This document shows, piece after piece, positions 4,693-63,228 of a DNA stretch of 64,000 nt (position 1 is its first letter; each line of letters opens with the position of its first letter). Below the pieces are notes generated by a model that had not been told where the DNA came from, did no database searches, and saw only the letters and a list, made by a program, of their open reading frames with translations. Position numbers and translations under genes: made by a program. The DNA comes from Heptranchias perlo (lineage: Eukaryota). The stretch covers positions 14,632,001 through 14,696,000 of the forward strand of contig NC_090340.1 of assembly GCF_035084215.1 (NCBI RefSeq), given 5' to 3'.

Positions 4693-4806
4693 CTTCAATG
4701 TAAGTTATTTTTATATGGTCCACAATAATATCCGTCAGTGCAAGAATTACCAGAAAACCTATGACAAGCCGACCAATCATGAGGAGCGAATTGATGAAAT
4801 TGTGAT
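4693..4806 (-). pseudogene. Transmembrane exon with intramembrane Arg (activating-type receptor); exon open but gene probably pseudogenised
   Basis: Acceptor ctgcag|, donor GAAG|gtaaga, 114 nt, phase 1-1 like the TM exons of genes A/B. Translation (D)HNFINSLLMIGRLVIGFLVILALTDIIVDHIKITYIE(G). Confidence 0.7.
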
Positions 4807-5995
4807 CTGCAGTGTAGGGTTAAAACCAAAATATAAAACTGTTGCATAAAATTTTTTCGAATGGGAGCAACAATAATTGTTTTATACAAAGGAATGGGGT
4901 CCATTAAATGTCTCGTTTAAACTGCACTCCATGGGGGTCGATTTTAACTTGCCTACATCGGCGTTGACAGCGTAATTACTGCCTCAAAATGGGTTCGGGA
5001 GACGACCACGCCTAGCACGGCGCCTTCCACTTTCACAGAGGGCCTATTGCTGGGGACTAGTACCTGTTTGTTTCAGATAGTAGGACCCTCTTCATATCTG
5101 AAACGGATGTGCAAATGACTCCGATTGCCGTTTTAAGAGCGAACTGGTGTACCCTGCACTCTCTGGCCAGTTTTACTAGAGATAGAGATAAAGAGAACTT
5201 GAATAGTTAAGTTTTAAATTATTCTTAAATGCCAGGAGGAGTGTCAATATGCGTCCCACAAAAAAAACCTGTGCCGCCGCAACCCGGGCTTCCCAATCCG
5301 GGATCGCCAGAGCCCGATTTACGTTGCTGGGCACCCAGCGGTCTCCGGGCCTCCCTGCGCACGGCATGAACGCCGGATCAGCGTTAACATCCCTGATTTT
5401 CACTTAAGTTGCCTGGGGTTGACTCCCCACATGGGAGTCTTGTTCTAACTGGCAAAGGGGTCGTGCCAAATTGTCTCCTTCTGAACTGTAATTCCTTAAT
5501 TTTACTCCAACATCTGCAGTGAGGGAAACTGTTCCGGACATTTCATGAACTGTTATATATTCGTCTGAAGAGTCCAAATCCGTAGTGGTAGCCAGAATGG
5601 ATATGCTCACCAATCCACAAGAAATTGAGGAGGGACGTGGCTCAGTGGATGAAGGCCATCCAGGCAATAGTTTACTTATATTTTTGGAAGATATTTGCAA
5701 AAGTTTTTCCTGTGAGGCTTTGAAGAAAATTCAGGCTCATAAAATTCAGGGGGAGTTGGAAAGTGATAAATGAACAAGTCTCTGTCTGGGAAGCAGTAGA
5801 GTTCTACCCGGTCCATTCTATGCTATCTAGTCTATTGATCAATAAATACAGAGGAATCACTTCTAGTAATAGCCCTAGATTTTCTGATGTCTTCAATGTA
5901 TGGATAGGTAAGAAGTAATTTAATAATACCCAAAACAATCTGGGTCATTTGCGGAAATGTCCTTGAAAGATGCTGGCTGCAGTTCTACACATAAC

Positions 5996-6309
5996 CTGTT
6001 CCAATTTTATCTTGATCAGCCGTGTAGCTGACACTGGCGGGCATCAGCAGAGAGACATGAGATACCAAACAGGTATAAACAACCCCTCTCCGGGCAGGCT
6101 GCACTTCTTCCAAAAAAATAATGGAACCTCCTATAGTCCCGCCACTCTCCTCTTTTTCACAGTTTCTACTCCAGTCAGAATTTCGACACCACCTCTTCGC
6201 CAGGAGATTCCTAAATGTTCCGGGCAAAAGGCAGCCGGTTTACACTCGAGTTTCAGAGAAGTCGGTGAAATCCCTTCAATAGAATCGATTTTCAGGGGGC
6301 TTGGGGAAA
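5996..6309 (-). pseudogene. Decayed Ig C1-set exon paralogous to the C1 of genes A/B
   Basis: PSPLKI..SLKLECKPAAFCPEHLGISWRRGG..AGL* then, after a frameshift, LEEVQP..YTCLVSHVSL. It has a TAG stop at the GLY position and an acceptor mutated to AA; donor ACAG|gttat. Confidence 0.85.
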
Positions 6310-8189
6310 TTTTAACAGAAAACATTGTCAGTATTAGTCTCCGTGTATTTATTACTGTATAATTTGGTAATGTTGCAATCTTACCTTAAACTAGAAATGC
6401 ATGGGTGCAAGTTTATCATTTCTGAACATCACAGTTTGTGCATGATTATTACAGTCGAATAGCCAAGTTTCACTAGGCGCATTCACGGGAACGAAACGAC
6501 GGCGAAGTGAATTTTCTATCGCCGGCGGTTATTAGCTTTTAGGTAGAGGCCATATTTGCTGATGTCTCTGGGCAATTTCGTAAATAATGGTGTTGAACAT
6601 AAATACAGCGCGGTGCATGTAAAGGCCGGGTTGGAATCTCAATGCAGCACAATTACCAGAAACCGCTTTCTCTGCCTGGGTGAGATCCTCCCACACTGAC
6701 CCAGTGGGATTAGATACTGTACGTAGGATTAGGGAAACTCATGAAAATTATTTTCTCCTACCACGTAATATTTTTTCCCAAAATGAAATCCAGAAGCTTA
6801 CATTTTTTTAAACGAGGAGAGAAATTAAAGCATTTCGATATTTTTAAACAAATAATTGCTCAGTCTTGATCTTTGAACCCAGCACAAAAGCTGTGTCCTG
6901 GACAACTAAACGGAAGGAAATCTATCTCTTAACGTTCTATTCCAAGCGCCCTCCGTAACCATTGCGGAATCTTCCCTATATTACAACACGCAGAACCTAT
7001 TCGCCCAGTGAAAATATGTAGGTGACTACTTTGACCGCAAGTCAAGACAATTTGGGTTACAAATTTGGGTTGGCAGTTCGAAGCGGGTGATATCGAATTG
7101 GCATCTCGTTTTTCATTCCGCTCGATGGACCTCAGTTGAGAAGGAAATCGGGCGGAATGTAAAACGGACTGCCGATTAGTTATCATTTGTATTGCGTTAC
7201 CGCACAAGACGGATTTATATCCCAATGCCACTTTGCTGTGAACAATGTCAATATAATTATTCTGGGTAAACACCGTGAAGATTTCATCTCGAGCATTAAT
7301 CCCAACAAACATATCAAAGCTTAGACCCCCGCTCCGGCTATGGCATCAAGCATAGGCCCCCAGAATGGAGAGAACTTTGGGAAACGCCTCAAAATATTAA
7401 TAAGGGGCGCCATGTTCTGGGTCCGGGCGTAAATAACTGCCGACTGCTGCTTAGTCCAACATAACCATTCAATGCGAGAGCTGATAGAATCTGTGAAGGA
7501 ACTTCAGCTCAATCAACCTTACATCCACAATGCCGGATATTTGAGACCAATTTTTTGTCCGGTTAATGTCTGTTAATTGAAATCCAAGATCCGTGTTCCA
7601 GAAATTTGGGATTCTGTAAATTAGACAGTTTCCCTACTTTATAGAAACAATTTGAATTTTGTCTCCATTGTTTGGTGGAGTTGGAATCATATTTACTAAC
7701 TCTCTCAGTGTTTACTCTGAAAGGAAAGCTTGTGCCACATTTCCAGTTGGTGAATCTGAGCCCATAGGAAGGACACCTTCACTGGGCTCTCTTTTTTTCT
7801 GAAGCACGGCTAATTAATTGCCCTCATATCACTTCCTTGAGCGCTTCATGCAAGGATGACCCAAAGACCACTGAACCATTTTCTACCGTGTGTGTTTATT
7901 GATTACTGTGTCTAGCGTTAATATGAAAGTAAAGTCGAACATGAATTCGTGGTTTATTCTTCACTGTTGAAATGTCTTGTTCTGTGAGGGTGATTGGCCT
8001 AAGATGGGAGACCACTTTTCCGTCAATACATGTACCCTGTCATGACCTATCTCCTGTGACAATGAAGCAGGGCAAGTAGCTGACCTGAAGGTAGTAGTGT
8101 CATCCAGTAGGAGCATATAATGCGAATTCGGTTTGTGCGCTCTCGACGATTTATTTGTCCATCCATTTTAATAGACTAAGAAACATGGG

Positions 8190-9896: not shown

Positions 9897-11143
9897 TAAA
9901 AGTGACGACGTACGAAGGTAGATTTCACATATCAACTACTCTAAAATGAATATTTCTGCTCTCACTACCGAGATATTCCGACCCATTTATAACATGATTC
10001 CGTGAGGATCTCTGCACTTCAAAATGTCTAACGTATTGCTGTTTGCTGAAATCGGCAATCGCTGTGCCTGTGGCCCCGGACAACGTTGCTTTCCGTTTCA
10101 AGTGATGCACCAGTTATCCTCCCTTTGTGTCACGTGGAACCGTCTCGTTCTCCCTCTGAAGTTTTGTAAAAGAAACAACAGTAAATGTAAAACTGTGCTT
10201 CATTATTTTTAAAAGCGGCATCGCGCCCCGGTGATGATCATAACCATTAGAAATGCGGATCTAGAAAATACACACCCAGAAACCCAGACCTAAGAAAGCA
10301 TACCGCCATAATCTACAAGACACCAGCATCTAAATCCAGCTCCGGTTGCCTCTTTGTGGGTGAACAAACCAAAGCTTGGTGAAATCGGCTTGTAATGTTT
10401 ATCCAAGGGTAAAAAGCGATTTCGCAAGAAATGCTTGGCTGCCACAACCCAATTTTCCCTGTGGTAGCTTTTCGGAAATTCCCTGCTTAAATCCACCTCA
10501 CATGTTTTGTTTAATTTATTTTTCGTCCAGCTCTGATTGAATTGTATTGAATCCATGTATCAAAACGAGAATCACATTGCTCTTGCTTAGCAATACATCG
10601 GGAAATCTATAAAACAGGATTTGATTCAAAGTCTTGCAGATTACGGCACTGTGTAAGACATGCGTTCCATAAAGCATGGTTTAACCCCTTGTGGTCAGTT
10701 TCTATCTTTACTACTTTATATAATACATTTCTAGTGTCTTGCCGTGGCTTGCTACTCATTTGCATTCCCTTACGTCTAAGTGAATGTATTATTGCTTTCA
10801 GTCGGACGTTGTGTCCTTTGGAGAAAACGAGAGAATGGAGTGGGCATCCTGCATAATCTTTGTTGCACCATACTGCATTTGGCGGGTAATTGTTAACCCC
10901 TATGCCCTCGTGGCACAATGACAATGCAGGTTTCTTTTTATATGAGACTTCTTCCTGCTTATGCAACCAACGTTTCTGCAGTGGCTTAAAGTTACAAGTA
11001 TTGAAAGTCCAGTCTGTTCCAACCTATTTCCTGAATCGGCAGACACATGCCCAACGTCATTGCGTCACAATTCGTAATACGCGGTCCGCAACAACCAAAT
11101 CCATGCACAGTGCGGGAGCGATCACCTTACTCCTTTGCTCAGA

Positions 11144-11816
11144 ATGTTGACGAGTTTTGTTTTTTCTCCGAGAGATCATTTACACAGGTACCTACAATTC
11201 TATAACCCAGCTGCCTCGATAAACAAAAACATGTGAAATGGTTTCCTCTGAAATACAATGAAATTTAAATCTCTCCCAATTTTGCTTCTTTCTTTTTTTC
11301 ATCTCCACGTCGTGTCTAATACAATTAACCAAACTTTGAATGTATTTCCTGACAGACGCTTCTAGTATTTCGATCAGTCACAACTTCTTGAACAAGCAAT
11401 TACATTCAGAGGAATACACATCACCTTCGACTGCATATTCTACTGAATATAAATTCAGTGCAATTTATTTCATCTTCGCGATTCTTCTTTATCTCTTTCA
11501 TTTGCAGGTAGAAATGTGTTTTAAAGAGTCTGGTTCTGCGTCCAATGCAATTATCCAAACTTTGCATGTATTTTCTAACATCTGCGGCGCCTATTTCGAT
11601 CTGAGTGGCTCAAATTCCCGAACAGGTGATTGCATTCAGAGGGACACACATCATCTTCGACTGTGTAATCTCCCTCTTTCAAGTCAACTCTTGGATAGAA
11701 GTGCTTTGGTGGAAAAAGGTTGAGAATGAATACCTGCAAAGTGGAACTTATAGCAGAAAATGACTTGGTTTGAAAATTAAAGGAAGCGGTTTCTTTCAGT
11801 TGCTGAACGCGACTTT
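11144..11816 (+). pseudogene. Leader + V pseudogene (copy 1)
   Basis: Leader-like exon 11144-11187 (44 nt, frameshifted) ends ...TTTACACAG|gtacc as in gene A. A partial V start lies at ~11356-11445. A second V at 11582-11816 (AAPISI*VAQIPEQ..FDC..WWKK..*..GFFQLLNATF) has two stops and a dead acceptor and is cut by CR1. Confidence 0.85.
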
Positions 11817-12236
11817 AAGAACCATAAGAAATAGGAGCAGGAGTAGGATACACGGCCCCTCGAGCCTGCTCCGCCATTCAATAAGATCATGGGTGATCTT
11901 CTACCTCAACTCCACTTTCCCACCCTATCCCCATATCCCGTGATTCCCTTAGTGTCCAAAAATCAATCGATCTCAGTCTTAAATATACTCAAGGACTGAG
12001 CATCCATAGTCCTCTGGAGTGCCAAAAATTCACAACTCTCTGAGTGAAGACATTTTCCCTCATCTCGGTCCTCAATGGCCGTCCCCTTATCATGAGGCTA
12101 TGGCTACAAGTTCTAGACTTTCCAGCCAGGGGAAACAGCGTCTCAGCATCTACCCTGTCAAGCCCTTTAAGAATGTTATAAGTTGCAATGAGATCACCTC
12201 TCATTCTTCGAAACTCCTGAAATTATAGGCCCATTT
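11817..12236 (-). mobile_element. CR1 3' end truncating the pseudo-V
   Basis: ORF 11989-12204 MRGDLIATYNILKG; tail aagaaccataagaaataggagcagg. Confidence 0.8.
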
Positions 12237-16021: not shown

Positions 16022-17877
16022 TTAAACAACTAACCATGTTGTTTGGTGGTGGACAATTAAACCATTTGGTGGTGGACAATTAAACAACTAACGGGAGGAG
16101 GAGGCTCTGCAAACACCCCCATCCTCAATGATGGCGGAGTCCAGCACGTGAGTGCAAAAGATAAGGCTGAAGCATTTGCAACCATCTTCAGCCAGAAGTG
16201 ACGAGTGGATGATCCATCTCGGTCTCCTCCCGATATCCCCACCATCACAGAAAACAGTCTTCAGCCAATTCGATTCACTCCACGTGATATCAAGAAACAG
16301 CTGAGTGGACTGGATACATCAAAGGCTATGGGCCCCGACAACATCCCGGCTGTAGTGCTGAAGTCTTGTGCTCCAGAAATAGCTGCGCCTCTAGCCAAGC
16401 TGTTCCAGTACAGCGATAACACTGGCATCTACCCGACAATGTGGAAAATTGCCCAGGTATGTCCTGTCCACAAAAAGCAGGACAAATCCAATCCGGCCAA
16501 TTACTGCCCCATCAGTCTACTCTCAATCATCAGCAAAGTGATGGAAGGTGTCGTCGACAGTGCTGACAAGCGGCACTTACTCACCAATAAACTGCTCACT
16601 GATGCTCAGTTTGGGTTCCGCCAGGACTACTCGGCTCCAGATCTCATTACAGCCTTGGTCCAAACATGGACAAAAGAGCTGAATTCCAGAGGTGAGGTGA
16701 GAGGGACTACCCTTGACATCAAGGCAGCATTTGACCGAGTGTGGCACCAAGGAGCCCTAGTAAAATTGAAGTCAATGGGAATGAGGGGGAAAACTCTCCA
16801 GTGGCTGGAGTCACACATAGCACAAAGAAAGATGGTAGTGGTTGTCGGAGTCCAACCATCTCAGCCCCAGGACATTGCTGCAGGAGTTCCTCAGGGCAGT
16901 GTCCTAGGCCCAACCATCTTCAGCTGCTTCATCAATGACCTTCCCTCCATCATAAGGTCAGAAATGGGGATGTTCGCTGATGATTGCACAGTGTTCAGTT
17001 TCATTCTCTACCCCTCAAATAATGAAGCAGTCCGAGCGCGCATGCAGCAAGACCTGGGCAACATCCAGGCTTGGGCTCATAAGTGGCAAGTTCCATTCGC
17101 TCCAGATAAGTGCCAGGCAATGACCATGTCCAACAAGAGAGAGTCTAACCACCTCCCCTTGACATTCAACGGCGTTAGCATCGCCGAATCCCCCACCATC
17201 AACATCCTGGGAGTCACCATTGACCAGAAACGTAACTGGACCAGCCATATAAATACTGTGGCTACGAGAGCAGGTCAGAGGCTGGGTATTCTGCGGCGAG
17301 TGACTCACCTCCTGACTCCCCAAAGCTTTTCCACCATCTACAAGGCACAAGTCAGGAGTGTGATGGAATATTCTCCACTTGCTTGGATGAGTGCAGCTCC
17401 AACAACACTCAAGAAGCTCGACACCATCCAGGACAAAGCAGCCCGCTTGATTGCCACCCCATCCACCACACTAAACATTCACTCCCTTCACCACTGGCAC
17501 ACAGTGGCTGCAGTGTGTACCATCCACAGGATGTACTGCAGCAACTCGCCAAGGCTTCTTCAACAGCACCTCCCAAACCCGCGACCGCTGCCACCTAGAA
17601 GGACAAGAGCAGCAGGCACATGGGAACAACACCATCTGCACGTTCCCCTCCAAGTCACACACCATCCCCACTTGGAAATATATCGCCGTTCCTTCATCGT
17701 TGCTGGGTCAAAATCCTGGAACTCTCTTCCTAACAGCACTGTGGGAGAACCTTCACCATACGGACTGCAGTGGTTCAAGAAGGCGGCTCACCGCCACCTT
17801 CTCAAGGGCAATTAGGGATGGGCAATAAATGCTGGCCTCGCCAGCGACGCCCACATCCCATGAACGAATAAAAAAAA
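16022..17877 (+). mobile_element. 5'-truncated poly(A)-tailed non-LTR retrotransposon (CR1/L2-group, young family)
   Basis: Open RT ORF; short 3' UTR gggatgggcaataaatgctggcctcgccagcgacgcccacatcccatgaacgaat(A)n. Confidence 0.9.
16205..17815 (+). CDS. LINE reverse transcriptase (partial ORF2)
   Basis: 536 aa: [44 protein letters not shown]. Confidence 0.85.
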   Translation: MDDPSRSPPDIPTITENSLQPIRFTPRDIKKQLSGLDTSKAMGPDNIPAVVLKSCAPEIAAPLAKLFQYSDNTGIYPTMWKIAQVCPVHKKQDKSNPANYCPISLLSIISKVMEGVVDSADKRHLLTNKLLTDAQFGFRQDYSAPDLITALVQTWTKELNSRGEVRGTTLDIKAAFDRVWHQGALVKLKSMGMRGKTLQWLESHIAQRKMVVVVGVQPSQPQDIAAGVPQGSVLGPTIFSCFINDLPSIIRSEMGMFADDCTVFSFILYPSNNEAVRARMQQDLGNIQAWAHKWQVPFAPDKCQAMTMSNKRESNHLPLTFNGVSIAESPTINILGVTIDQKRNWTSHINTVATRAGQRLGILRRVTHLLTPQSFSTIYKAQVRSVMEYSPLAWMSAAPTTLKKLDTIQDKAARLIATPSTTLNIHSLHHWHTVAAVCTIHRMYCSNSPRLLQQHLPNPRPLPPRRTRAAGTWEQHHLHVPLQVTHHPHLEIYRRSFIVAGSKSWNSLPNSTVGEPSPYGLQWFKKAAHRHLLKGN

Positions 17878-18049
17878 TGATCTTGTTGAATGGGGGAGCA
17901 GGCTCGAGGGGCCGGATGGCCTGCTCCTGCTCCTATTTCTTAAGTTCTTATGTTCTGACTCGGATGCAAGAATGCTACCAATGAGCCACGATGGAGACTT
18001 AACATCACTCTTGTTGAATATTGTTTCCTCAAGCTTACTTTAAGCACCA

Positions 18050-20475: not shown

Positions 20476-20523
20476 ACAGGATGTCAAACGACATTGCGAC
20501 GCATCTCATTAAAAACAACCGCA
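20476..20523 (+). promoter_or_regulatory. Candidate ETS + RUNX sites upstream of gene A
   Basis: ACAGGATGT (20476-20484) and AACCGCA (20517-20523), 65-110 nt upstream of the ATG, conserved in gene B. No obvious TATA box. Confidence 0.35.
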
Positions 20524-20587: not shown

Positions 20588-20642
20588 ATGTCGGCGAGTA
20601 TGGTGTTTCTGTGCTTGACGCTCCGGGGGATTATTTACACAG
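20588..20642 (+). CDS. Gene A exon 1, signal peptide
   Basis: MSASMVFLCLTLRGIIYT, phase 1 donor G|gtacc; identical in gene B. Confidence 0.8.
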
Positions 20643-23600
20643 GTACCTCTTTATTCACAAGAACAGCTACTTTAATTTATAAAACATTTTCCGAAGTCGT
20701 TTCCACATAAATGCAATGAACGTAATTCCTCTATCTAGATTCATTTTTCTCTCTTCCATCTCCATGTCGTATCTAATACAATTATCCCGGATTTGACTAT
20801 TTTCTCTGACAGCTGCGGACCACAGTTCGTTCAGAGTGACTCAAGCGCCCGAACAGGCGATTGTATCCAAAGGGGGAGACATCACCTTCTACTGCATATT
20901 CCCAATCTCTCAAACCCATTCCTGGGTAAGAGTGTATTGGTGGAAACAGGGTGAGGATGAATACCTGCCAAGAAGCGCCGATAAGAGAAAACGATTTGGT
21001 CTGGAAGGTAAAGCGAGAGGTTTCTTTCAGTTAATGCGCGCGACTTTCCAAGACTCTGGAGTCTATCACTGCGCAGTGATCCGAGAGGGAATAGTTGGAG
21101 GAAATGGAACCGGATCACATCTCATTGTGCATGGTAAGTGTGAAACACCACAGAGCGGGACTGTCGCAAACATATCAAACATAACAAAGGGGAATGTTTT
21201 GTGATTGTTTTATTGTAGTTTTTGACAGTATAAACATTTCTGCGATCACATTTCGCGAGAATGTTAAGTTGCATTTTCGTGTTCTCTATATAGAACTACC
21301 AATTTGAGAGTAAAATATAACCCTCCACACTGAGAGTACAGCAAAATGTTTAAATGATAAGCAATTGGCCTGTAACTCCAAATAAATTTATACACCAGAT
21401 ATCTGACAGCGGAAGTTCAGAACAAATTCCAAGCTTATAACTGAGTGAAAATGGTTTATATTAACACGCTTCCCCCACCATATACACGGCTCTTAGCCCA
21501 TTTTGAATGGTCTGTCTGCTCCCATCTCCGTCTCTAGGGTTTAACACTCTTGAAATTAATTCTCACATCATGTTTGGCTCGTTAGCGTCACGGATTTGAA
21601 AGCCAGCGTGCAACTAACTGTTGATTAACGGATTCACTTAACAAACTGGAGCTTGGAATTCACAACGTTGTCGCCTCACTAACCCCCAATAAATACAATA
21701 CGCCGGAACTGTGTTGCTGAAACCTCCTGAGGTTCAACCGAATATAGTTCGTTTCACCAATCTTCATGCTTCGGCTGTGAGATCAGTCCGATACCTGCTA
21801 ATGCCCTCCTTTTATCATCGCAATGTGCAGATCACTCGTCACTTTCTAACTGAGTAAAAAAAATGGAGGACTGGGCGCGCCAACTTTCCCCCAGGGTTTA
21901 TTTGTTTAATTCTTTGGACGATGAAACGTGACATTGATTAGCAATCGTTGCGAGGCGTCTGCTGAGTAACTCAAAGTGCATGTAACGCAGTGCATGTAAA
22001 CAAATGCCGGTGACGATGAGTGATATGGATGAGGTGTGTGTTGACGATCTGCCTAACATTAACAGGACAGGAGACTGTGCTTTAGAATGTTGCTGTTAGA
22101 ATAAAATGGACCGATGGTAAATAAGAATCATATTTAATTTCTCCCAATGGTGCCCAGTAACTCGATTTTGTTCATTCTCTGTTCCGCAGCTCCCCCAACT
22201 CCACTGAAGATTGTCTCCAGGACAGCTGAGGGGAATTCATCTGCGACTCTGACTCTTGTGTGTGAAACGGCTGAGTTTTATCCGGAGAATTTCACCCTCG
22301 CTTGGTATAAAAACGGCGTTGTAATTGCAACAGGAATAAATACCATTAAACGGCAGAACACTGAGGGGCTGTATGAAGTTTCCAGCTCTTTGGAAGAGAC
22401 GCAGTATGTCCCGAGCGGCACGAATTATACCTGTGTGATATCTCACGTCTCGCTCAAGACTCCAGCTATTGTCACCTATAGTGTTACGAAATCTAACCAA
22501 GGTACGAGGCCAACAGTCCAAGAGGATAGTTAAAATCGCAAACAGATATATCGTATAGTTTGCAAACAAATATATTGTAGAGCTTGTATTGATAATCATG
22601 AAGATATTTCGCTGGAAACGCATGGGAAATAATCACAAAAACATAAAATTCTTGTTTTAATGTATAATATAATTGAACCCAATGTGTTGTAAAACGGGGT
22701 TATATCGTCCATAGCACAAATTTTGTGTCAAACCTTATTTGCCTTCAACTTCCTCTATTTTACGTATAACGAATGGAAACAGGAGTTTATCTTTTGTATC
22801 CCATTATATTTCTCTCCTGCTTAGTATTAATACATCTTCGGGTTTTTTTCCGTTTTAAATGGTTTCATTCTTTACCACTGCCGGCTTTCCCTGCATCAGG
22901 ATAATTACCATGAGCTGCAGTGAACTTTTTTTTATTCGTTCATGTGATGTGGGCGTCGCTGGTAAGGACAGCATTTATTACCCATCCCTAATTGCCCTTG
23001 AGAAGGTGGTGGTGAGCCGCCTTCTAGAAAGGCTGCATTCCGTGTGGTGAAGGTTCTCCCACAGTGCTATTAGGTAGGGATTTCCAGGATTTTGACCCAG
23101 CAGCGATGAAGCAACCGCGATATATTTCCAAATCGGGATAATGTGTGACTTGGAGGGGAACGTGCAGGTGGTGTTGTTCCCATGTGCCTGCTGCTCTTGT
23201 CCTTCTAGGTCGCGGGTTTGGGAGGTGCTGTCCAATGAGTCTTGGCGAATTACTGCAGTGCATCCTGTGGATAGTACACAATGCAGACACGGTGCGCCGA
23301 TGGTGAAGGGAGTGAATGTTTAGGGTGGTGGATGGGGCGCCAATCATGCGGGCTGCTTTGTCCTGGATGGTGTCAAGCTTCTTGAGTGTTGTTGGAGCTG
23401 CACTCATCCAAGCAAGTGGAGAGTATTCTATCACACTCCTGACTTGTGCCTTGTAGATGGTGGAAAGGCTTTGGGGAGTCAGGAGGTGAGTCACTCGCCG
23501 CAGAATACTCACCCTCTGACCTGCTCTTGTAGCCACAGTATTATGTGGCTGGTCCAGTTAAGTTTCTGGTCAATGGTGGCCCCCAGGATGTTGATGGTGG

Positions 23601-28310: not shown

Positions 28311-28453
28311 CGGACGCAATTCTAGCATTGACTGGCTCAGTGAAAAGTGCGCAATGCAAAAATGACGAAAGAAGCACCGACTATGCCCAGCTACAAACGC
28401 AAAGCCAAAATAGAGTAACAGAGGCTGTTTACTCCGAAGCAAGAATCAAATAG
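28281..28453 (+). CDS. Gene A exon 7 (frameshifted; stop at 28308-28310, ancestral stop at 28453)
   Basis: 1 nt shorter than gene B just after the acceptor, giving KHKGQPVTS*. AATAAA at 28774-28779. Confidence 0.65.
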
Positions 28454-36300: not shown

Positions 36301-36305
36301 CTCCT

Positions 36306-46118: not shown

Positions 46119-48302
46119 GGTGCTGTTGAGATCTGGCAACAATGGGGAAGCAAGATCTTGCAACTTTGCAGTGAATTGGGGGCCCAGAAGAATAGGACCT
46201 AAACTGCCTTTGGTCCCTTTTATACCATCAGACCCCAACTTAACACTATCTTCCAGGCTCGCTCCCAAAGGTCCTCTACCATTCGTCCCGTTGGCAGCCA
46301 ATCTCTGCCTTAAAGCACCTAACTATAACTTTTCTGCTTCTTGCAATTAATGGGCAGCATGGAGCGGAGGTGACATTTTCACAATATTCTCTTTCAGCCT
46401 ATGCCAGGCGCACAAGTGTGAAGAGTTTATCCTTTAGTTCATACGCCAGCTTACTAGCCTTGACATTCCACAGCGATACTCCCAGTCTTTCAGCCATTTG
46501 TACCGTTTCTCTAATGTTTTTGCCCGTCTCCTGCCGAAGTTATAGCAGACCAGGATAACGCACACGGAATTTCATGGTACAGTCTTTCATAAGCATAACA
46601 TTTTGATTGTGGAAACCACAGTCACAAGGTTGCAAATCACAGAGTCTGTCTCTCACTGGTGTTATCTAAGCAGTTCAAAACAGAGAACAGCATCTCTTAA
46701 TAAATGTTACCACTTTCATGAAATAAATATTTGAGAATTCAATCTTAATTTTATTTCAAAGTCCTTTGGAAAAAGCAAAGACATTCTGAAATCCTCACGG
46801 ACTTTCTCGGGAATCAATGGAATATAATTAAGCAAATAATTGGAATGTTTACTCAATATCCATGTCCGTGATTTCAAATATTTTTTTCTTGTAAGTGGAA
46901 AGCCTTGCATCATTCGCAATGTCACATTTATCCGACAGCGTTTGGAATCCCGGCCCCTCTAACGATCTGCAATCATATGCAGCCACTCCGGGCTTCACTC
47001 AGACGAGTTACAGCTCGCAATGGACTGATATTAAAAGTGACGACGTACGAAGGCAGATTTCACATATCAACTCCTCTAAAATGAATATTTCTGCTCTCAC
47101 TACCGAGATATTCCGACCCATTTATGAGATGATTCTGTGACGATCGCTGCACTTCAAAATGCCTAACGTATTGCTGTTTGCTGAAATCGCCAATCACTGA
47201 TTCTGAGGCACCGGACAACGCTGCTTTCAGTTTTCAGTGATGCACCAGTTCTTCTCCCTTTGTGTCACCTGGGAACGTCTCGTTCTCCCTCTGAAGTTTT
47301 GTAAAAGAAACAACAGAAAATGTAAAGGTGTGTTTCATTATTTTTAAAAGTGGCATCGCGTCCCAGTGATGATCATAACCATTAGAAATGCGAATCTAGA
47401 AAATACACACCCAGAAACCCTGATGTAAGAAAGCATACCGCTACAATCTACAAGACGTCAGCATCTAAATCCCGCTCCCGTTGCTTCTTTGTGAGTGAAC
47501 AGTCCAAAGCTTGGTGAAATCTGCTTGTGATGTTTATCCAAGGATAAAAAGCGATTTCGCAATAAATCCTTGACTGCCAGAACCTAATTTTCCCTGTGGC
47601 AGCTTTTCAGAAATTTCCTGCGTAAATGCACCTTATGTGTTTTGTTTAACCCATTTTGTAGTCCAGTTCTGATTGAATTGTATGGAATCCATGGATCAAC
47701 GCGAGAATCACATTGCTCTTGCATCGCATCACATCGGGAAATATGCAAAACAGGATTTCATCCAATGTCTTGCAGATAACGGCACTGTGTATGACATGCG
47801 TTCGATAAAGCCTGGTTTAACCCCTTGTGGTCAGTTTCTATCTTTACTGCTTTAAATAATACACTTCCAGTGTCTTGCCGCGTCTTCCTGCTTCTTTATA
47901 TTCCCTTACGCCTAAAGGAATGTATTATTGCTTTTAGCCTGAACACATTAGTCTAACGATGTGTCCTTGGAGAAAACGAGAGCATGGATTGGGCATTCTG
48001 CATAATCTTCGATGCACCATCCTGCATTTGCAGGTAATTGCTAACCCCTACACCCTTGTGGCACAATGACTATGCAGGTTTCGATTCATAGGGGATTTTC
48101 TTCTGCTTATGAAACCATCGTTTCTGCAGTGGGCTAAAGTTACAAGTATTGAAAGTTCAGTCTGTTACAATCTATTTCCTGAATCGGCAGCCATATGCCC
48201 AACGTCACTGCGACACAATTCGTATTACACAGTCCGCAACCACCTTTACATTACCAAATCCATGCACAGTGCGGGAGCAATCACCTTACTCCTTTGCTCA
48301 GA

Positions 48303-48962
48303 ATGTTGACGAGTTTTGTATTTCTCCTGAAGATCATTTACACAGGTACCTACAATTCTATAACCCAGCTGCCTCGATAAACAAAAACATGTGAAATGGT
48401 TTCCGCTGAATCACCATGAAATTCAAATCTCTCCCAATTTTGCTGATTTCTTTGTTTCATCCTCACGACGTATCTAATAAAATTAACCAAACTTTGAATC
48501 TATTGCCTCACAGCCGCTTCTAATATTTCGATCAGTCACAACTTCTTGGACACGCGATTAGATTCCGAGGGACACACATCACCTACTGTATATTCCACTC
48601 AACACAAATTCAGTGAAATTTAGTTAATCTTCGCGATGCTTCTTCACCTCTTACATTTGTAGCTAGAAGTGTCTTCCAAAGTGTTTGGTTTTGCGTCCAA
48701 TGCAATTAACCACGGATATTTTCTAACATCTGCGGCGCGTACTTCGATCAGAGTGGCTCAAATTCCCGAACATGTGATTGCATTAAGAGGGACAGACATC
48801 GTGTCCTACTGTGTAATCTCCCTCTCTCAGGACAACTCTTGAATAGACGTGTGTTGGTGGAAACAGGTTGAGAATGGACCTGCAAAGTGTAACGGATAAC
48901 AGAAAATGATTTGGTCTGAAAGTTAAAGAAGGCGGTTTCTTTCATTTGCTGAACGCGACTTT
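48303..48962 (+). pseudogene. Leader + V pseudogene (copy 2)
   Basis: Leader 48303-48345 MLTSFVFLLKIIYT (phase 1). Frameshifted partial V from 48514. Second V at 48730-48962 has a stop and frameshift and is cut by CR1 at the same site as copy 1. Confidence 0.85.
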
Positions 48963-51237
48963 AAGATAAGAACATAAGAAATTGGAGCAGGAGTAGTCTA
49001 TAAGGTTCGCTCGAGCCTGGTCCGCCATTCAATAAGATCATGGTTGATATTCTACCTCAACTCGACTTTCCCACCCTATCCCCATTTCCCCTGATCCCCT
49101 TAGTTTACAAATATCCATCGATCTCAGCCTTAAATATACTCAAAGACACAGCATCCACAGTCCTCTGGCAAAGAGCATTCCAGAGATTCACAATATTCTA
49201 AGTGAAGAAATTTCTCCTCATCTCGGTCCTAAATGGACGACCCCTTATCTTGACACTATGATCTCTAGTTCTAGACTCTCCAGCCAGGTGAAACAGCCGC
49301 TCAGCATCTATCCTGTCAAGCCCTCTAAGAATTTTATACGTTTCAATGAGATCACCTCTCATTCTTCCAAACTCCAGAGAATATAGGCCCATTCTACTCA
49401 ATCTATCCTCATAGGACAACCCTTTTGTCCCAGGAATCAATCTGGTGAACCTTCCTTGCACCGTTTCTAAGCAAGGTACATCCTTACGTAAGGAGACCAA
49501 AACTGTACACAATTCTTCAAATGTGGTCTCACTGGAGCCCGATATAATTGCAAGACTTCCTTACTCTTATACTCCTACCCCCTTCCAATAACATATTGTT
49601 TGCCTTCCTAATTGCTTGATTATCCTACATGTTGACTTTCTGTGATTCATGTACATGGACAGACAAATTCCCATGATTATCAATATTTCTGGGTCTGTTT
49701 TTCTATTCTTCCTACCAAAGTGGATAATTTCACATTTATCGGCGTCATCCTCCATCTGCCACCTTCTTACGTCCTCCTTGCAGTTTACTTTCCAACCTAA
49801 CCTATACATTAGACTCGGTCCCCTCATCTGAGTCATTAATATATATTGTAAACAATTGAGGCCCAAGCACTGATCCTTGTGGCACCCCACTAGGTACAAC
49901 CTGCCAACCTGAAAATTAGCCGTTCATTACTACTCTCTGATTTCTTTCCGTTAGCCAATCCTCAATCCATGCTAATCTGTTGCTCCCAATCTCATGATCC
50001 CTAATCTTGTGGTAACAACCTGTTGAGTGGTATCTTATCAAATGCCTTTTGGAAATCCAATTATTACATCCACTGATTCTCCCTTATCTACCCTGCTAGT
50101 CACACCCTCAACAGATTCTAACAAATTTGTCAAACACGATTTCCCTTTCACACAACCGTGTTGACTCTGCCGAATCATATTATCATTTTCTAAGTACCCT
50201 GTTACCACGTCTTTAATAATAGATTCCAGCATATTTCCGACTACTGATATCAGGCTAACTGGCCTATAGTTCCCTATTTTCTCTCTCCCTCCTTTCATGA
50301 AAAGCGGGGCTACATTTGCCACCTTCCAATCCACGGGGACCATTCCACAATCTTGGGAAATCTGGAAGATCAAAACCAATGTATCAACTATCTCTGTAGT
50401 TACCTTTTTTAAAACCCTAGGATGTAGGCCATCAGGTCCAGGGGATTTGTTGGCTTTTAGTCCCAATAATTTATCCAATACTTTTTCTTTACTAATCTTA
50501 ATTATTTTGTGTTCATCACTCTCATTGGACCCTTGTTTTTCCATTATTTCCGGTATGTTTTTTGTGTCTTCTATTGTGAAGACCGATGCAAAATATTTGT
50601 TTAATGTCTCTGCCATTTCCTTGTTCCCCATTACAATTTCTTCTGTCTCTGCCTCAAAGGGATCCAAGTTTACTTTTGTTAACCTCTCCCTTTTTACATA
50701 CTTGTAGAATCTCTTACAATCTATTTTCATATTCCTTGCTAGTTTGCTCTTATATTCAATTTTCTCCCTCTTTATCAATTCCTTGGTCACCCTTTACTGA
50801 TTTCCAAAACCCTCCCAATCCTCAGGTTTACTACTATTTTTTGGCAACATTGTGAGCCTCTTCTTTTAATCTAATACTATCCTTAAATTTTCTAGTTAGC
50901 GACGGTTGGATCACTTTTCCCATGGGATTTTTATTTCTTAAGGGAATGTATACTTATTGAGAATTATGAATTATTGCTTTAAATGTTCGTCATTGCTTAT
51001 ATACCATCATATCTTTTAATGTCATGTCACAATCTACCTTATTCAACTTGCCCCTCATACCGATGTAAAAGGCTTTGTTTAAATTTAAGACCCGAGTTTC
51101 AGACTTAACCAGATCATTCTCGAACTCAATATGAAGTTCTGTTATATCATGACCACGCTCCCCCAGAGGATCCTTAACTATATGATTGCTAATTAAACTT
51201 GTCTTATTACACAATACTAGATCTAAAATAGCCTGTG
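48963..51237 (-). mobile_element. CR1 ORF2 (~2.3 kb, degenerate)
   Basis: ORFs 50038-50790 (KSPGPDGLHPR, NYRPVSL) and 49198-49512. Confidence 0.85.
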
Positions 51238-52140: not shown

Positions 52141-55100
52141 ATGTCGGCGAGTATGGTGTTTCTGTGCTTGACGCTCCGGGGGATTATTTACACAGGTACC
52201 TCTTTATTCACAAGAACAGCTACTTTAATTTATAAAATGTTTCCGAAGTAATTTCCACATAAACGAAGTGAAAGTAATTCCTCTCTCTCGATTCATTTTC
52301 TCTCTCTTCCATCTCCATGTCGTATCCAATAAAACTAACCCGTACTTGACTAAATTTTCTGACAGCTGCGGACCACAGTTCGTTCAGAGTGACTCAAACG
52401 CCCAAACAGGCGACTGTATCCATAGGGGGAAATATCACCTTCTACTGCATATTCCCCATCTCTCAAACCCATTCCTGGGTAAGAGTGTATTGGTCGAAAC
52501 AGGGTGAGGATGAATACCTGCACAGAAGGGGCGATAAGAGAAAACGATTTGGTCTGGAAGGTAAAGCGAGCGGTTTCTTTCAGTTACGGAACGCGACTTT
52601 CCAAGACTCTGGAGTCTATCACTGCGCAGTGATCCGACAGGGAACAGTTGGAGAAGATGGAAACGGATCGCATCTAATTGTGCATGGCAAGTGTGAAACA
52701 CCGGAGAGCGGGACTGTCGTAAACATATCAAACATAACAAACGGGAATTTTTTTGTGATTTGCTTTATTGTACAGTTTCTGACAGTATAAACATTTCTAT
52801 GAACACTTTTTGCGAGATAGATAAGTTTTATGTTCGTGTTCTCTGCATAGAACTGCCAATTAGGTAGTACAATATAACCCTCCACACGCAGGGTACTGTA
52901 AAATGTATCAATGTTAAGCAATTGGACTGTAACTCCAAATAAATTTATACACCAGAGGTTTGATAGCGGAATTTCGGAAAAAAAATTCAAGCTGAATGAA
53001 AATTGTTTATATTAATGCGCTTTCCCCACTATAGACACGGTTGTTAGCCCATTTTGGCTGCTCTGTCTGCCCCCATCGCTGCCTCTGGGGTTTGACATTC
53101 TTGAAATTAATTCTCACATGATGATTGGCTCGTTAGCGTCACGGATTTGAAAGCCAGCGTCCAACTAACTGTTGATCAACGGATTCACTCAACAAAGTGG
53201 AGCTCGGAATTCACAACGTTGTCACCTCACTAACCTCCAATAATTACAATAATACGCAGGAACTGTGTTGCTGAAATCTCCTGATATAGTTTCTTTCACC
53301 AATCGTCATGCTTCGGCTGTGAGATCTGTCCGATACCGACTAATGCCCTGGTTTTATCATCGGCAATGTGTAGATTACTCGATTACTCGTCACTGTCTAA
53401 CTGAGTAAAAAAATGGAGGACTGGGCGCGCCAACTTTACCCAGGGTTTATTTCTTTAATTCTTTGGACTATGAAACGCGACATTGATTAGCGATTGTTGC
53501 GACGTGTCTGCCGTGTAACTCAAAGTTTTGGACTCGATGGTGCATGTAAAATTGAACAGATACCGGTGACGATGAATGATATGGATGAGGTGTGTGTTGA
53601 CGATGTGCCGAACTTTAACAGGACAGGCGGCCGTGTTTTGGAATGGTGCTGTTTTAATAAAATGGACCGAAGGTAAAGAATCATATTTAATTTCTCCCAA
53701 TGGTGCCAAGTAACTCGACTTTGTTCATTGTCTGTTCCGCAGCTCCCCCAACTCCACTGAAGATTGCCTCCAGGACAGCTGAGGGGAATCCATCTGCGTC
53801 TCTGACTCTTGTGTGTGAAACGGCAAAGTTTTTTCCGGAGAATTTCACCCTCGCTTGGTGTAAAAACGGCGTTGTAATTGCAACAGGAATAAATACCATT
53901 AAACGGCAGAACACTGAGGGGCTGTATGAAGTTTCCAGCTCTTTGGAAGAGACGCAGCCTGTCCCGATCGGCGCCAATTATACCTGTTTGGTATCTCATA
54001 TCTCCCTCCAGACTCCTGCTGTTGTGACCTATACTGTTACGAAATCTGAACAAGGTACGAGGCCAACAGTCCAAAAGAGCAGTTAAAATCGCAAACAGCT
54101 ATTTCGTAGAATTTGTACATATTGACAATCATGAAGATAGTTCACGGGAAACTCATGGGAAATATCAACGAATACATAAAATTCTTGTTTTATTGTATAA
54201 TATAATTGAACTCGATGTGTTGTAAAACACGGTTATATCGTCCGGTACACAAATATTCTCAGTCAAATCTTATTTGCCTTCAACTTCCTCTATTTCAGGA
54301 ATAACAAATATAAACAGGAGTTTATCTTTTGTATCCCATTATATTTCCTCTCCTGCTTATTATTAATACTTTTACGGGTTTTTTTTCTATGTTAAACTGG
54401 TTTTATTCTTTACCACTGCCGGCTTTCCCTGTATCAGGACAATTACCAGGAGCTGCAGTGGACGTGTTTGCTCTTTGGCTTCTTCCAATGCAGTTCTCAA
54501 TCCTGTGAACCCCCCTTCCCCTTCCGGCTACGTCTGGTGCACAGTTCTGAACTGAAATCTCTGTCCAACTTCTACCCCACATCTCTTCATGCCACAGCGG
54601 GTTCGATTGGGACCTCTCTCATAAATCTCATGTAAACTGTACCCTCAACTTGGTTACAGTGCAGCCGGTTCACTATATCATTTGATTAACAATTCTTAGC
54701 TTTGCCAGACAATAATTAATAAACCGTCGCCCGTTGATCTCCTTTACTCGTCAATGACATTTTTACTTTAATAAATACAGTGCGGATAATTGAATGAGGG
54801 TTATTAACCAATTGCTGCAATCCCGAATTTTGTTCGGGCAGCGAGTAAACCCGTGAGAACAAATTCCCCCCACCGATTTTCTCAAACTATATGTTAATGA
54901 ATAAGAATGGTCAAGGACATGGACAAGTCATTCGGTCCAGGGAAATTTATCCCCTTCATTTTCTAATTTTCCTAAAACATTGTTTTGTGATCCCTAAACG
55001 GTAGTCACCTTCGCAGATTAATCCAGAACGTCTCATCTATTCGATGAAGGAGTTACTTCAAATGTTATATCTAAAAAAATAACGTTTTTTTATTTACACT

Positions 55101-56815
55101 TTCTTATTTTTGTTCTGTACAGCGGAATGACTGAAAGCATCAATAGTTTAACCAATACACTATCGTGCGGCCTCTTTTTAGCAAACGCCCGTCACAACTT
55201 AATGTTCCTATTAATCTTACAGCTAGTGTCATTTACTTCTGGGCTCTTGGGTGTGCGATGGGTGGATTGGCGTTTCTCGTGCTGATGATCGTCATTGGGA
55301 AGCGGTGCCGTCTGCAGAATAAAGAAGGTAAGATCTACTGTAAAAGCTTGATTTTAGACGAAACCTCAGGGTGAGAGTCTCCGGGTAACAGAGAGGAAGC
55401 AGAACTCGATTTTAACTTAAAGTTGAAGGCAATGGTTTCTGTTTTCAGGGAGCGCAGATTGTTCCAACTACACGTTAAAACGCAGAAATCCTCACATAAT
55501 TGTATTAAAATTTGCGATCATTATCTGGATGTTTGCAACAGAAATTGACAATATACAGCAAGTGATAAATGAACTGTGCCCTGGCACACAGTCACTTTCC
55601 AACCCATTACTTTGTAGGTGCGTAATGAGTTTGAGTGAAACCGTGTGAGGCCCCGGTCCTGGAATGGTTGTGCACCGTTGTTAATCGCTACAGGGGTTGG
55701 GATTCAAACATTGTCAGCACAAACTGAAATTGAAAATTATGTTCGCTTTCTACCGAATCTAGAAATTTCTTTGATATCGCTGAATGGAAACTGAGTAAAT
55801 TTGTCAATCTTTCAATTTAATTTAATTGGTTTGCAGGTGAAGAGGGGCGTGTAATGGGACCGACCCGCCATGAAGAGCTGGTACGTTCATTCATTCATGC
55901 TCTGCAGAGGGTTCAAATGTGAAGAAAGATTGCTTTCATGGAGAGATGTTATCACAATCATGTCAGTACGTTAGGTGGCGGACAAGAAAACTGCCAGTTT
56001 CGTTTAAAATGTACCTATGTTTTAACGGTTTATAGATTAATCTATTCCTTTAATTTGAAAAAATTACTTTTATGTTCTAAAGCGGCCTTTCATTCAAACA
56101 TTTCTGTAACACAGTGTTGTAGAGCGTATACTGACAGGTTTAAATATTAGTTATAGTGACCACAGCACTCATTGGTCTCAATATTCTTACTTATGCCAAT
56201 ATATTAATTATGCTTTGTGCACTTGATCTCTAGCCCAGGTCATTCTGCTCAATGTTTGGTAAGCAGTTCTTAACCTGGTGAAGGCAATGAACTAGGTACG
56301 TAATCAATCATTTGCTTTGTGGCCCATGCAGGGAACAGAGGCTGAGATCGTGCATTATGCTGCATTAGATTTGAGCAAAGCCAGGAAAACTCCAAGACGT
56401 AAAGATGAAGAGGAGAGGACCGTGTACGCTCAGGTAGGGATGAGTAACAGATCAGAGAAACATAGATCATGAGTGTAACACCAACATTCATGCGATAGTG
56501 GAGTATTTCGGGTTGTGCTGACTTTGATCGTGTGATGTATCTAAAGCTATTTGTGTATTATGCTGATGACTGTTTAGAGCAGCAGTCCACAAAACTTGCA
56601 AAACGACCAATCAACAATATTTCCAAACATTGGCTTTACAGAACAAACAAGGGGCAGCCCGTGACAAGCTGACATACGCAACGCTAGCATTGACTGGCTC
56701 AGGGAAAAGGGCGCAATACAAAAATGACGAAAGAAGCACCGACTATGCCGAGCTACAAACGCAAAACCAAAGAAGAGTAACAGAGGCTGTTTACTCCGAA
56801 GCAAGAATCAAATAG
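52141..56815 (+). CDS. Gene B: non-rearranging IgSF inhibitory receptor L-V(J)-C1-TM-ITIM, SIRP-alpha-like, ~370 aa
   Basis: Exons 52141-52195, 52366-52686 (GC donor), 53743-54054, 55223-55327, 55837-55880, 56332-56433 and 56642-56815. The spliced frame is open for 1113 nt; AATAAA at 57152-57157. Confidence 0.85.
52366..52686 (+). CDS. Gene B exon 2, Ig V-set domain
   Basis: ITFYC..VYWSKQ..DSGVYHC..GEDGNGSHLIV. Confidence 0.9.
53743..54054 (+). CDS. Gene B exon 3, Ig C1-set domain
   Basis: LVCETAKFFPENFTLAWCKNG..YTCLVSHISL. Confidence 0.9.
55223..55327 (+). CDS. Gene B exon 4, uncharged transmembrane segment
   Basis: VIYFWALGCAMGGLAFLVLMIVIGKR; 12 nt shorter than in gene A, frame kept. Confidence 0.85.
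56332..56433 (+). CDS. Gene B exon 6, ITIM exon
   Basis: GTEAEIVHYAALDLSKARKTPRRKDEEERTVYAQ. Confidence 0.82.
56642..56815 (+). CDS. Gene B exon 7, ITIM/ITSM-like terminal exon
   Basis: NKQGAARDKLTYATL...STDYAELQT...AVYSEARIK*. Confidence 0.82.
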   Translation, partial: NKQGAARDKLTYATLALTGSGKRAQYKNDERSTDYAELQTQNQRRVTEAVYSEARIK

Positions 56816-60583: not shown

Positions 60584-61499
60584 TATATTCGGTTGATCCT
60601 TAGGAGGTTGGCAAAACTGTTTCTGCGAACATTTAACTTATTGGAGATTAGTAAGGTGACAATATTGTGAGTTCCAAGATCCAGTTTGTTGGGTGAATCC
60701 ATTGATCAGCACGCTGGCTTTCCAGTCTGTGAGAGGAATGGGGGCAGACGGAGCATCTAAAATGGGCAATGTGCCGTGAATATGGCGGGGCAGGCGTGTA
60801 CAGATTTACAGCATGTTTTAAAATTATATTTGGAATTTGTTGCGAAGCTTTCGCCATCAGACATCAATTTTAAGTTGAATCCAGGAGCGGGTTGTATAGC
60901 AATGATTATATTTACATTAAGCCACCAGCAAAATACTAATCTACAAGTCTACCGGGACGGAGAGAGCCAAGATGTGCTCCCATTGACATTCCGAGTTGGA
61001 TACTTTATCAATAAGTATTCACAGCCACGATTAATTTGCCATGCATGTTTTGGTCTGTATCCTTGCATCTATGTATATATCTGCGCATTTTCTTTTCAAC
61101 CGTCTTGTGCATAATCATAGACAGTGTATTCCTTAAGGGGAATGCAAACATGTCGACGCTTCAGCACTGTCTTATCTCCCTTCAGTGTTGTAACCGGAAA
61201 TACCTCTCCACTTACTATTGTTGCCTAGCTTCCCCTTGTTATAATGCAGAACTGCTGGTTGGAGGCAGTGTGGTAGCAGGAATTCCGAATGCAAGTGCCT
61301 CTCCTGTGACTTCACGAATGGGGGTGGCTTGCCTCTGCTCAGTGTCCCGATGTGGTTGAAGCGAGATTGCAAGGAGGCACATTGGAAATTCTTTGCAAAA
61401 TCTGTCCCTTAATCACCTCCAAACTGCAGTTCTATTGTGTAAAACATTATGATTGGAATAACCTGAATGAGTAATATTCCTCACAAAATTTTTACAATT

Positions 61500-62420
61500 A
61501 TGGAGAAATTGAAAAAAGATAGGTGAGAAAGTAAACTGTCAGGAGGATGCAAAGAGTCTACAAAGGAACATGGACACCTAAGGTGAGTGGGCAAGTAAGT
61601 GGCAGTTGGAGTATAATTTGGGAAAATGTGAGGTTATTCACTTTGATAGGAAAAATAGAAAAATTGAATATTTTTCAACGGTGAGAAAGGATTAAATGTT
61701 GGTGCTCAGAGAGATTTGGGTGTCCTTGTACACGAAACACAAAAAAAGTTAACATGCAGGCACAGCAAGCAATTTGGAAAGGAAGTGGTATGTTTTGCCT
61801 ATCTTTTCTAAAAGTCAAGTACCCTGGAATATTTAGTTCCCAACCTTGGTCACCCTGCAACCACGTCTCAGTAATGGCTACTCGATCAAACCCATTGATC
61901 TCTATTTGTGCCATTAATTCATCTAGCTTGTTATGAATGCTTTATGCATTCAGATGCGGCACCTTTAAGTTAAACATTTTAATTTTCCCGCTGATGTCAA
62001 TAATATCTTATTATCTTTGTTAAACTCTCTGTCCCTTCCTGACGCACTCTGCTTGTTTGTACTCAAATCGCTACTCTGCTCGACAGCCTTGACTTTTCTT
62101 TCTGGACTTATAACATTAAAATTACCCTTACCTGACCCCCACCACCCTTTATACGTTTATAGCCCTATCTACCACCCTATTTATTCAATTCGCTCGGGCA
62201 CTGGTCCCAGCACAGTTTAAGTGGAACCTGTTCCAACGGAACAGCTCCCTTCTTCCCCAGTACTGGGGGTAGTGCCCAATGAATTGAAAACCCTACTTCA
62301 CACACCACTCTTTCAGCCACGTATTTAACCCTCTAATCTGTGTATCCCTATGCCAATTTACTGATGGCTCAGGTAGTAATCCTGAGATTATTATCTTTGA
62401 GGTTCTGCGCCCAGATTCGG
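61500..62420. mobile_element. CR1 fragments in opposite orientations
   Basis: + RT fragment to ~61795; - strand APE start (AITETWL..NIPGY) and ORF1 esterase (IIISGLLP..LNTWLKEWC). Confidence 0.7.
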
Positions 62421-62933
62421 GGGTTATCGAATATAACTCCCGTAGTTTCTTACAGCAGATGTCATGTTTAAGCTGTGAGATCTGTCCGATACCTACTAAT
62501 GCCCTATTTTTATTGTCGATAATGTGTAGATTACTCGTCACTGTCTATCTGTATGTATCAACCGTGGAAAAACTAGGCGCGTCATCTTTCCCCAGTGTTC
62601 AATCATTGAATTCTTATTGGAATATGTAGCGCAGATATTTATCAGAAATGATGTAATGGGTCTGTTTGAAAATTGCGATTAAAGTTGAATAATTTAAAGG
62701 ATTGGGCTCAATAATAACACAAGGTATACCACAGGTGTAATTGAACAGAGGCCTTAGCCATGAGTGATATTGGTGAGGTTTGCGTAGATGACGTGTGTAA
62801 CATTAAAAAGACAGGTTAATGGCTTTCTAATGGTGCTGCTACAATAAAATAGTTCGAAGATAAATCTAAATGATGTTTGGTATCTCCCAATGCTACTCAG
62901 TAATCAGATTTTGTTCCATTCTCTGTTCCGCAA

Positions 62934-63228
62934 CTGCACCAACCGCGCTGAAGATTCTCTCCAGGACATCTGTATCTCTGACTTGTGTGTGAAACGGCTG
63001 AGGTCTATCCGAGAAATTCCACCCTCCCTCGGTATGAAAATGGCGTAGTAACTGCGATAGGAATACAAAACATTCAATGGCAGATAACTGAAGTGCTGTA
63101 TGACGTTTCCTGCTCTTTGGAAGAGACGCAGCCTGTGCCGAGCGGTGCCAGTTACACCTGTTTGGTATCTCACATGCCGCTCGAGACTCCACCTGTGGTC
63201 ATCTACACGGTTACCAATTCTAACACAG
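62934..63228 (+). pseudogene. Orphan C1 pseudo-exon with a homologous upstream intron (from ~62470)
   Basis: Acceptor mutated to CAA, 15-nt and 2-nt deletions, and the invariant W replaced by R. Retains CETAE.YP..LEETQPVP..YTCLVSH and the G|gtacga donor. Confidence 0.85.

Follow-up and report, generated by a model that had tools for sequence, protein, structure and literature searches.

A candidate family of paired, non-rearranging VJ-C1 membrane receptors in cartilaginous fish

The stretch of Heptranchias perlo DNA under study (64,000 nt, positions 14,632,001 to 14,696,000 of NC_090340.1, contig C18 below; hereafter the window) covers ∼64 kb of a 1.1-Mb gene cluster and crosses the junction between two copies of a repeated unit of ∼100 kb. 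With a probability of roughly three in four (0.77), the window is part of a large cartilaginous-fish family of non-rearranging membrane proteins that combine a joined variable-type immunoglobulin (Ig) domain (VJ) with a C1-set domain and likely act as paired immune receptors. A paired inhibitory/activating VJ-C1 family had been proposed in an initial annotation of the window; the proposal holds at the level of the cluster, where near-identical V domains are found on both transmembrane (TM) classes and open paralogues with an Arg-bearing TM segment occur.

Gene structure and the two transmembrane classes

Genes A (20588-28453) and B (52141-56815) lie on the plus strand, are in phase, and share the same seven exons, i.e., leader, V, C1, TM, and three tail exons. 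All exon ends follow the AG/GT rule, with the single exception of a GC donor 3′ of the gene B V exon. Gene B, which is intact and of the L-VJ-C1-TM type, has a leader exon at 52141-52195 (spliced model), a single-exon VJ domain at 52366-52686 (Pfam V-set, E 2.8e-11), a C1 exon at 53743-54054 (Pfam C1-set, E 9.7e-11), a neutral TM exon at 55223-55327 delimited by its splice sites, and tail exons at 55837-55880, 56332-56433, and 56642-56815. Its open product of 370 amino acids carries three motifs resembling immunoreceptor tyrosine-based inhibitory motifs (ITIMs), the tail motifs being VHYAAL, TVYAQN, LTYATL, TDYAEL, and AVYSEA. The gene A leader (20588-20642, from the spliced model), VJ exon (20813-21133, Pfam V-set and splice sites), C1 exon (22190-22501, Pfam C1-set and splice sites), and neutral TM exon (26771-26887, splice sites) are followed by tail exons at 27384-27427, 27975-28076 (VHYVAL, TVYAQ), and 28281-28453. 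The last of these has one base fewer at its start than its gene B equivalent, and the shifted frame stops after nine codons (KHKGQPVTS). The spliced product, of 326 amino acids, is letter-identical to the public H. perlo model P0002. Its tail retains VHYVAL and TVYAQK only, i.e., one ITIM, and the second ITIM is degenerate (LTDAIL) even in the frame that was lost. The two ITIM-bearing plus-strand genes of the initial annotation thus stand as to the structure of both and entirely for gene B, whereas gene A proved to be frameshifted. Two tandem repeat copies at 22925-26013, resembling 16180-17880, lengthen the C1-TM intron of gene A to 4.3 kb, versus 1.2 kb in gene B.

Searches with the gene A V exon returned 102 matches genome-wide, 100 of which are on C18: 58 at 2.70-5.97 Mb (proximal cluster), 41 at 14.54-15.63 Mb (distal cluster; two are split halves), and 1 at 19.03 Mb. 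At least 91 C1 matches at E values up to 1e-12 (150 of 278 candidates scored) are likewise all on C18. About 100 genes and remnants make up the family in this species. TM segments were classed in a partial sample of 60 stretches from the distal cluster, 38 from the proximal cluster, and 2 at the lone gene. Sixty V exons in this sample were stop-free, one of which was dropped for an internal deletion; the TM exon that follows the remaining 59 is neutral in 39 cases, Arg-bearing in 12, and of the Arg class with a Gln in 1, leaving 7 without assignment. In the Arg class, the charged residue lies ∼15-19 residues ahead of a D/N-H end motif. No stop interrupts the spliced V, C1, and TM exons of three Arg-TM genes near the window, one of which can be spliced from its leader. 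The case made in the initial annotation had hinged on intact V-C1-Arg-TM paralogues existing elsewhere, and these three lie in the same cluster. Two loci of the activating class depart at the Arg site, namely, an open gene with Gln (L004; C18:14539741-14534353) and a pseudogene copy with Trp (L020; C18:14743615). Judging from these residues, adaptor coupling is probably lost in such members of the class.

The V domain is a joined VJ, with a G strand of the form xGxGS/TxLxV (NGTGSxLxV) and Cys-Cys spacing of 54-59. The J-like strand is encoded inside the V exon, and a strict pattern for recombination signal sequences matched at 0 of 59 V exons; the family is therefore not a set of rearranging Ig or T cell receptor (TCR) genes. 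A germline-joined Ig light chain was ruled out as well, by the TM and ITIM exons and the lack of a secreted form. In the full-length structure model, two Ig domains are followed by a TM helix, and the tail is of low confidence. The V model is of high confidence (predicted local distance difference test score, 90.6), and its fold search tied V-NAR, NCAM, TCR, PD-1, and NKp30. Searches of solved structures with a single V and with the V profile returned generic V/I matches, mostly multi-domain proteins, and fold searches gave no ranking among families.

By its two TM classes, the family would signal in both directions. Members with a neutral TM and a tyrosine-motif tail would inhibit via SHP-1/SHP-2, and the tyrosine spacing of these tails (∼23-14-23) is found again in shark, ray, and chimaera members. 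Arg-TM members would activate via an adaptor of the FcR-gamma/CD3-zeta type, and an adaptor exon of the zeta/FcR-gamma type, with Asp in its TM segment, is present in the genome. Inhibitory forms would, by analogy with SIRP, LILR, KIR, and Ly49, sense self ligands at leukocyte contact, and their activating twins would catch pathogen decoys or altered self. Five models (P0010, P0072, P0101, P0135, and P0160) place V-C1-V-C1 or V-only ectodomains on ITIM-type tails, which suggests domain-number variants or C1 skipping.

Pairing of V domains across the classes

TM class is unrelated to V phylogeny. On a V tree of 52 genes, the labels of the 13 Arg-class genes required 12 changes, compared with a mean of 11.7 when labels were shuffled, and starred branches alone need 9. 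The C1 tree required 12 changes and the TM tree 1, the latter being partly circular because the labels came from TM profiles. Family-wide, the median V identity is 40%. The closest V to that of an Arg-class gene nonetheless sits on a neutral-TM gene for 10 of the 13, with identities of 99, 99, 99, 96, and 90% in five of them.

Two genes document how such pairs may form. In the first, a chimeric Arg-TM gene at C18:14837037-14833774, a neutral-TM 5′ half is joined to an Arg-TM 3′ part. Its similarity to three neutral-TM loci is 82-100% in 200-base windows from the leader down to a point ∼75 bases short of the TM acceptor, whereas the sequence past that point is 88-96% like two Arg-TM loci, and the two match zones do not overlap. 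In the second chimera, L097 matches L096 at 93-95% over 5.6 kb; the likeness ends in the C1-TM intron, beyond which the gene resembles another Arg-TM gene. Neutral-TM and Arg-TM genes are adjacent in the distal cluster, on one strand and with the neutral-TM gene directly upstream, so that a crossover in the C1-TM intron, or a deletion there, would explain the chimera. The V exon also exceeds its flanks in likeness in six of seven pairs (e.g., 99% versus 86/83, 98 versus 85/84, and 92 versus 71/57), with no excess in the remaining one, a pattern that would fit exon-restricted conversion or selection. Unequal recombination in the C1-TM intron, together with exon-restricted gene conversion, would keep producing matched activating/inhibitory pairs, and birth-and-death turnover would leave pseudogenes such as those in the window.

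Several observations weigh against this interpretation. V and C1 blocks with identical or near-identical scores recur at fixed offsets of ∼0.3 Mb (14.68 versus 14.98 Mb) and ∼0.8 Mb (3.5-4.0 versus 4.3-4.85 Mb); these may be recent segmental duplications or assembly duplicates, and copy counts are thus approximate. Among neutral-TM genes, ITIM tails were followed in some, and several others have broken or untraced tails, so a neutral TM does not equal an inhibitory receptor. Substitution patterns did not reveal an overall excess of replacements: over 58 non-independent pairs, the ratio of nonsynonymous to synonymous rates was 0.65 for V (above 1 in 11 of the 58) and 0.51 for C1, which is relaxed and no proof of positive selection. 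No run recorded as RNA contained the chimeric Arg-TM gene; transcript data came from four contig sets of one sample, whose RNA nature is a guess, aligned to that gene. The spliced joints 6983-6813 and 6493-5006 have intron ends identical to the predicted L-V and V-C1 sites. However, at all 13 of the sites checked, the variant letters of the spliced contigs agree with an ITIM gene located at 15.438 Mb rather than with the chimera, and the spliced L-V-C1 RNA therefore counts for that ITIM paralogue. The bin of the Arg-TM exon was covered in two of four runs, with the next two intron bins uncovered, and no C1-TM joint was among the matches listed from these sets. The initial annotation had called for spliced transcripts; these were thus obtained for the L-V-C1 part of one ITIM paralogue, and the junction from C1 to the Arg-TM exon is missing from the listed matches. 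Signalling, ligand, and cell type are inferred only.

Taxonomic range, genomic setting, and known systems

All 43 rows of a full-length homologue search were sharks, rays, or chimaera, and many further homologues came from a profile search against 1.84 billion representatives. Nineteen of 20 V-C1-type matches looked up were chondrichthyan, the other being a multi-domain lizard protein. Ten long multi-Ig matches chosen as likely outsiders comprised seven bony vertebrates and three chondrichthyans of other or unexamined architecture. Arg-TM members were named from Heterodontus, Scyliorhinus, Carcharodon, and two Chiloscyllium species, and no named Arg-TM member from chimaera was found among the homologues looked up. 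Where rows state it, members of one species sit on one chromosome-scale contig. Their automatic database names are a mixture (SHPS1-like, tapasin-related-like, NCR3-ligand-like, Ig-lambda-like, class II beta-like, and CD276-like), which hides family members in databases.

The right flank of the distal cluster carries exons for NUDIX_2, SYVN1-type TPR, RING, CUE, G2BR, and BBS2_N domains (Pfam; 150 of 659 open reading frames [ORFs] scanned), which we read as putative NUDT21, AMFR, and BBS2. On the left, a double helix-hairpin-helix exon is probably EEPD1-like. Around the proximal 2.7-6.0 Mb cluster, Pfam named no gene among 150 of 193 candidate ORFs scanned over all 40 flank stretches; a long stop-free, low-complexity array lies just outside it (L129-L130; C18:6.06-6.08 Mb). 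The lone gene at 19.03 Mb is flanked by MBTPS1. NUDT21, AMFR, BBS2, and MBTPS1 are human 16q genes, and they lie together on reedfish chromosome 9. This lone, divergent member (L061-L062; C18:19.02-19.03 Mb) has a neutral TM and a tail without a canonical ITIM (P0073), and proteins resembling it occur in bamboo sharks and rays (P0084, P0090, and P0153). The family may have in it a conserved single-copy anchor. An exon for an IBR domain of the RBR ligase type is also found near the lone gene (L148:2631-3248). The flanks, which the initial annotation had proposed to examine, fit neither the MHC-linked shark NCR3 locus nor the SIRP marker. In the part of the PMC10751288 supplement at hand, nudt21, bbs2, and mbtps1 appear solely in the reedfish chromosome 9 sheet; there, the reedfish list has no annotated Ig-receptor cluster by nudt21, and the sole SHPS1-like gene of that chromosome sits among other genes. 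The same partial source places a cluster of SHPS1-like, tapasin-related-like, and NCR3/NCR3LG1-like models on reedfish chromosome 12 at 7.3-12.5 Mb, possibly a bony-fish counterpart or a look-alike.

In design, the family works like SIRP or LILR, yet the tests of membership in SIRP and NCR3 that were run placed it in neither. The strongest rival explanation, itself improbable, is that these genes are cartilaginous-fish SIRP orthologues, relocated and expanded, that have a single C1 in place of two and would bind CD47-like ligands. SIRP-alpha clusters were the top two matches of a language-model feature search (0.97), a profile search matched SIRP-alpha at E 2.3e-27 (rank 5 of 104), and many RefSeq models are auto-named SHPS1-like. 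Like SIRP, the family comes in paired forms, with a joined VJ first domain, a C1-set second domain, and a four-tyrosine tail in which a doubled ITIM + TxY pattern recalls that of SIRP-alpha. However, UrIg2 and Ig heavy chains outscored SIRP in the same profile search, UrIg2 ranking first there and also being the top solved-structure match for C1 (E 2.3e-15). Genes A and B and nearly all models have one C1 rather than the V-C1-C1 arrangement. The Cys-Cys spacing of 54-59 is shorter than the ∼66 of SIRP V domains, and 12 of 13 activating-class TMs have Arg, whereas the SIRP-beta TM has Lys. Finally, the ∼100 V copies differ from SIRP in number and lie at a NUDT21/AMFR/BBS2 locus, unlike SIRP, which adjoins NSFL1C at human 20p13; by this single synteny marker, C18 has no SEP-domain (NSFL1C-type) gene, such genes being on C22 and C3.

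Still less likely, the genes could be ones that Kinlein 2021 or Ohta 2019 had already reported as shark NCR3/NKp30 or as NCR3 homologues. The former reportedly covers shark NCR3, with eight nurse shark subtypes (MT914154-MT914161), and the latter is said to treat VJC1 genes and NCR3 homologues. Both the single-exon, non-rearranging VJ with its NGTGSxLxV G strand and the Arg early in the TM, the latter in activating members only, are as in NKp30, which was among the tied V fold matches (Z 12.9, root-mean-square deviation [rmsd] 2.3, 97 aligned). Nevertheless, a C1 exon follows V here and NKp30 has none, although V-only splice models exist in this family; most members bear ITIMs, and no NCR3-like name appeared among 43 and 40 homologue rows. 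The locus also appears to lie off the chromosome of the major histocompatibility complex (MHC): C18 gave neither a proteasome nor an MHC class I match, with the caveat that MHC class I sits on small unplaced contigs in this assembly. A genome search for MHC class II gave no match, but neither did its controls. White shark, catshark, and sawfish carry their NCR3 genes on MHC chromosomes, whose gene lists, in the accessible part of PMC10751288, lack the flanks nudt21, bbs2, and mbtps1. Synteny and the C1 exon thus argue against NCR3, our first guess at identity.

That the genes encode B7/butyrophilin-like ligands rather than receptors is very unlikely: B7-H6 (Z 16.6, rmsd 3.4, 193 aligned), then PD-L2 and butyrophilin, were the best whole-ectodomain fold matches, and some models are named NCR3-ligand-like or CD276-like, but fold-match identity was only 16-22% and reflects the V+C arrangement, the conserved ITIM tails and the Arg-TM class are typical of receptors, and no B30.2 exon was seen.

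Paired VJ-C1 receptors, the reading we prefer, can also be set beside other Ig families. Teleost NITRs are of the V-I type. Together with skate MDIRs, which are CD300/TREM/pIgR-like, they form multigene activating/inhibitory families (PMC3031540, in part), as proposed here; the second domain of the present family is, however, C1-set, and its architecture differs from that of MDIRs. PRARP/VJC1, UrIg, and UrIg2 share with it a single-exon VJ plus C1. UrIg is a secreted protein with three C1 domains, according to the accessible portion of PMC12227049, whereas this family is membrane-bound, paired, and outside the MHC paralogons listed in the available part of PMC10751288 (human 1, 6, 9, and 19; minor, 12, 14, and 15). 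No description of the family was found in the literature covered; Ohta 2019 and Kinlein 2021, outside those texts, could mention members. The portion of the elephant shark genome supplement at hand (PMC3964593) contains no SIRP, NKp30, NCR3, or ITIM text. The family is probably undescribed as a paired system.

Dead units of the window and significance for shark immunity

The remaining family members in the window are remnants. The initial annotation had included a minus-strand C1 + Arg-TM unit as the activating counterpart of genes A and B. It is present at 4693-6310 but is a pseudogene. Its TM exon (4693-4806, minus strand) is bounded by AG/GT and stop-free, and a DNA search found six copies of it, every one inside the cluster. 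In its C1 pseudo-exon (5990-6310, minus strand), however, the acceptor AG is lost, and a stop and a frameshift occur near 6130. Likeness to intact activating paralogues ends at ∼8061, ahead of any V or leader; the unit is thus V-less and cannot make a receptor. Two L-V pseudogenes and an orphan C1, also listed earlier, were confirmed, and all carry stops. L-V pseudogene 1 (11144-11820, plus strand) has a frameshifted leader at 11144-11187 and a V exon with two stops, broken at ∼11820 by a repeat; pseudogene 2 (48303-48966, plus strand) is an 86% copy of the block carrying pseudogene 1; and the orphan C1 pseudo-exon (62918-63228, plus strand) has a stop and a frameshift. A degenerate neutral-TM remnant on the minus strand (10212-10286) and a second copy at 47347-47451 were picked up by weak tblastn matches (E 2e-4 and 2e-3). 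Apart from the family, the segment 117-2873 contains a 652-codon open frame (596-2551) that reads by eye as a Penelope-type retroelement. It lies between 513-bp inverted repeats that are 99.4% alike and is probably a recent insertion.

In its widest form, the proposal would make this family the main germline self/non-self receptor system of NK (natural killer) or myeloid cells in cartilaginous fish: undescribed, class-wide, outside the MHC paralogons, with polarity repeatedly flipped by one-intron recombination and some members perhaps reading MHC class I as KIR, Ly49, and LILR do. We regard this extension as doubtful. The locus preserves clear genomic snapshots of paired-receptor formation, and the debate on antigen-receptor origins gains many non-rearranging VJ-C1 genes that lie outside the listed MHC paralogons. 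Few NK or myeloid receptor families are known in sharks, and the dozens of open VJ-C1 genes in matched forms offer direct candidates for the recognition of missing self and of decoys in the oldest jawed vertebrates.

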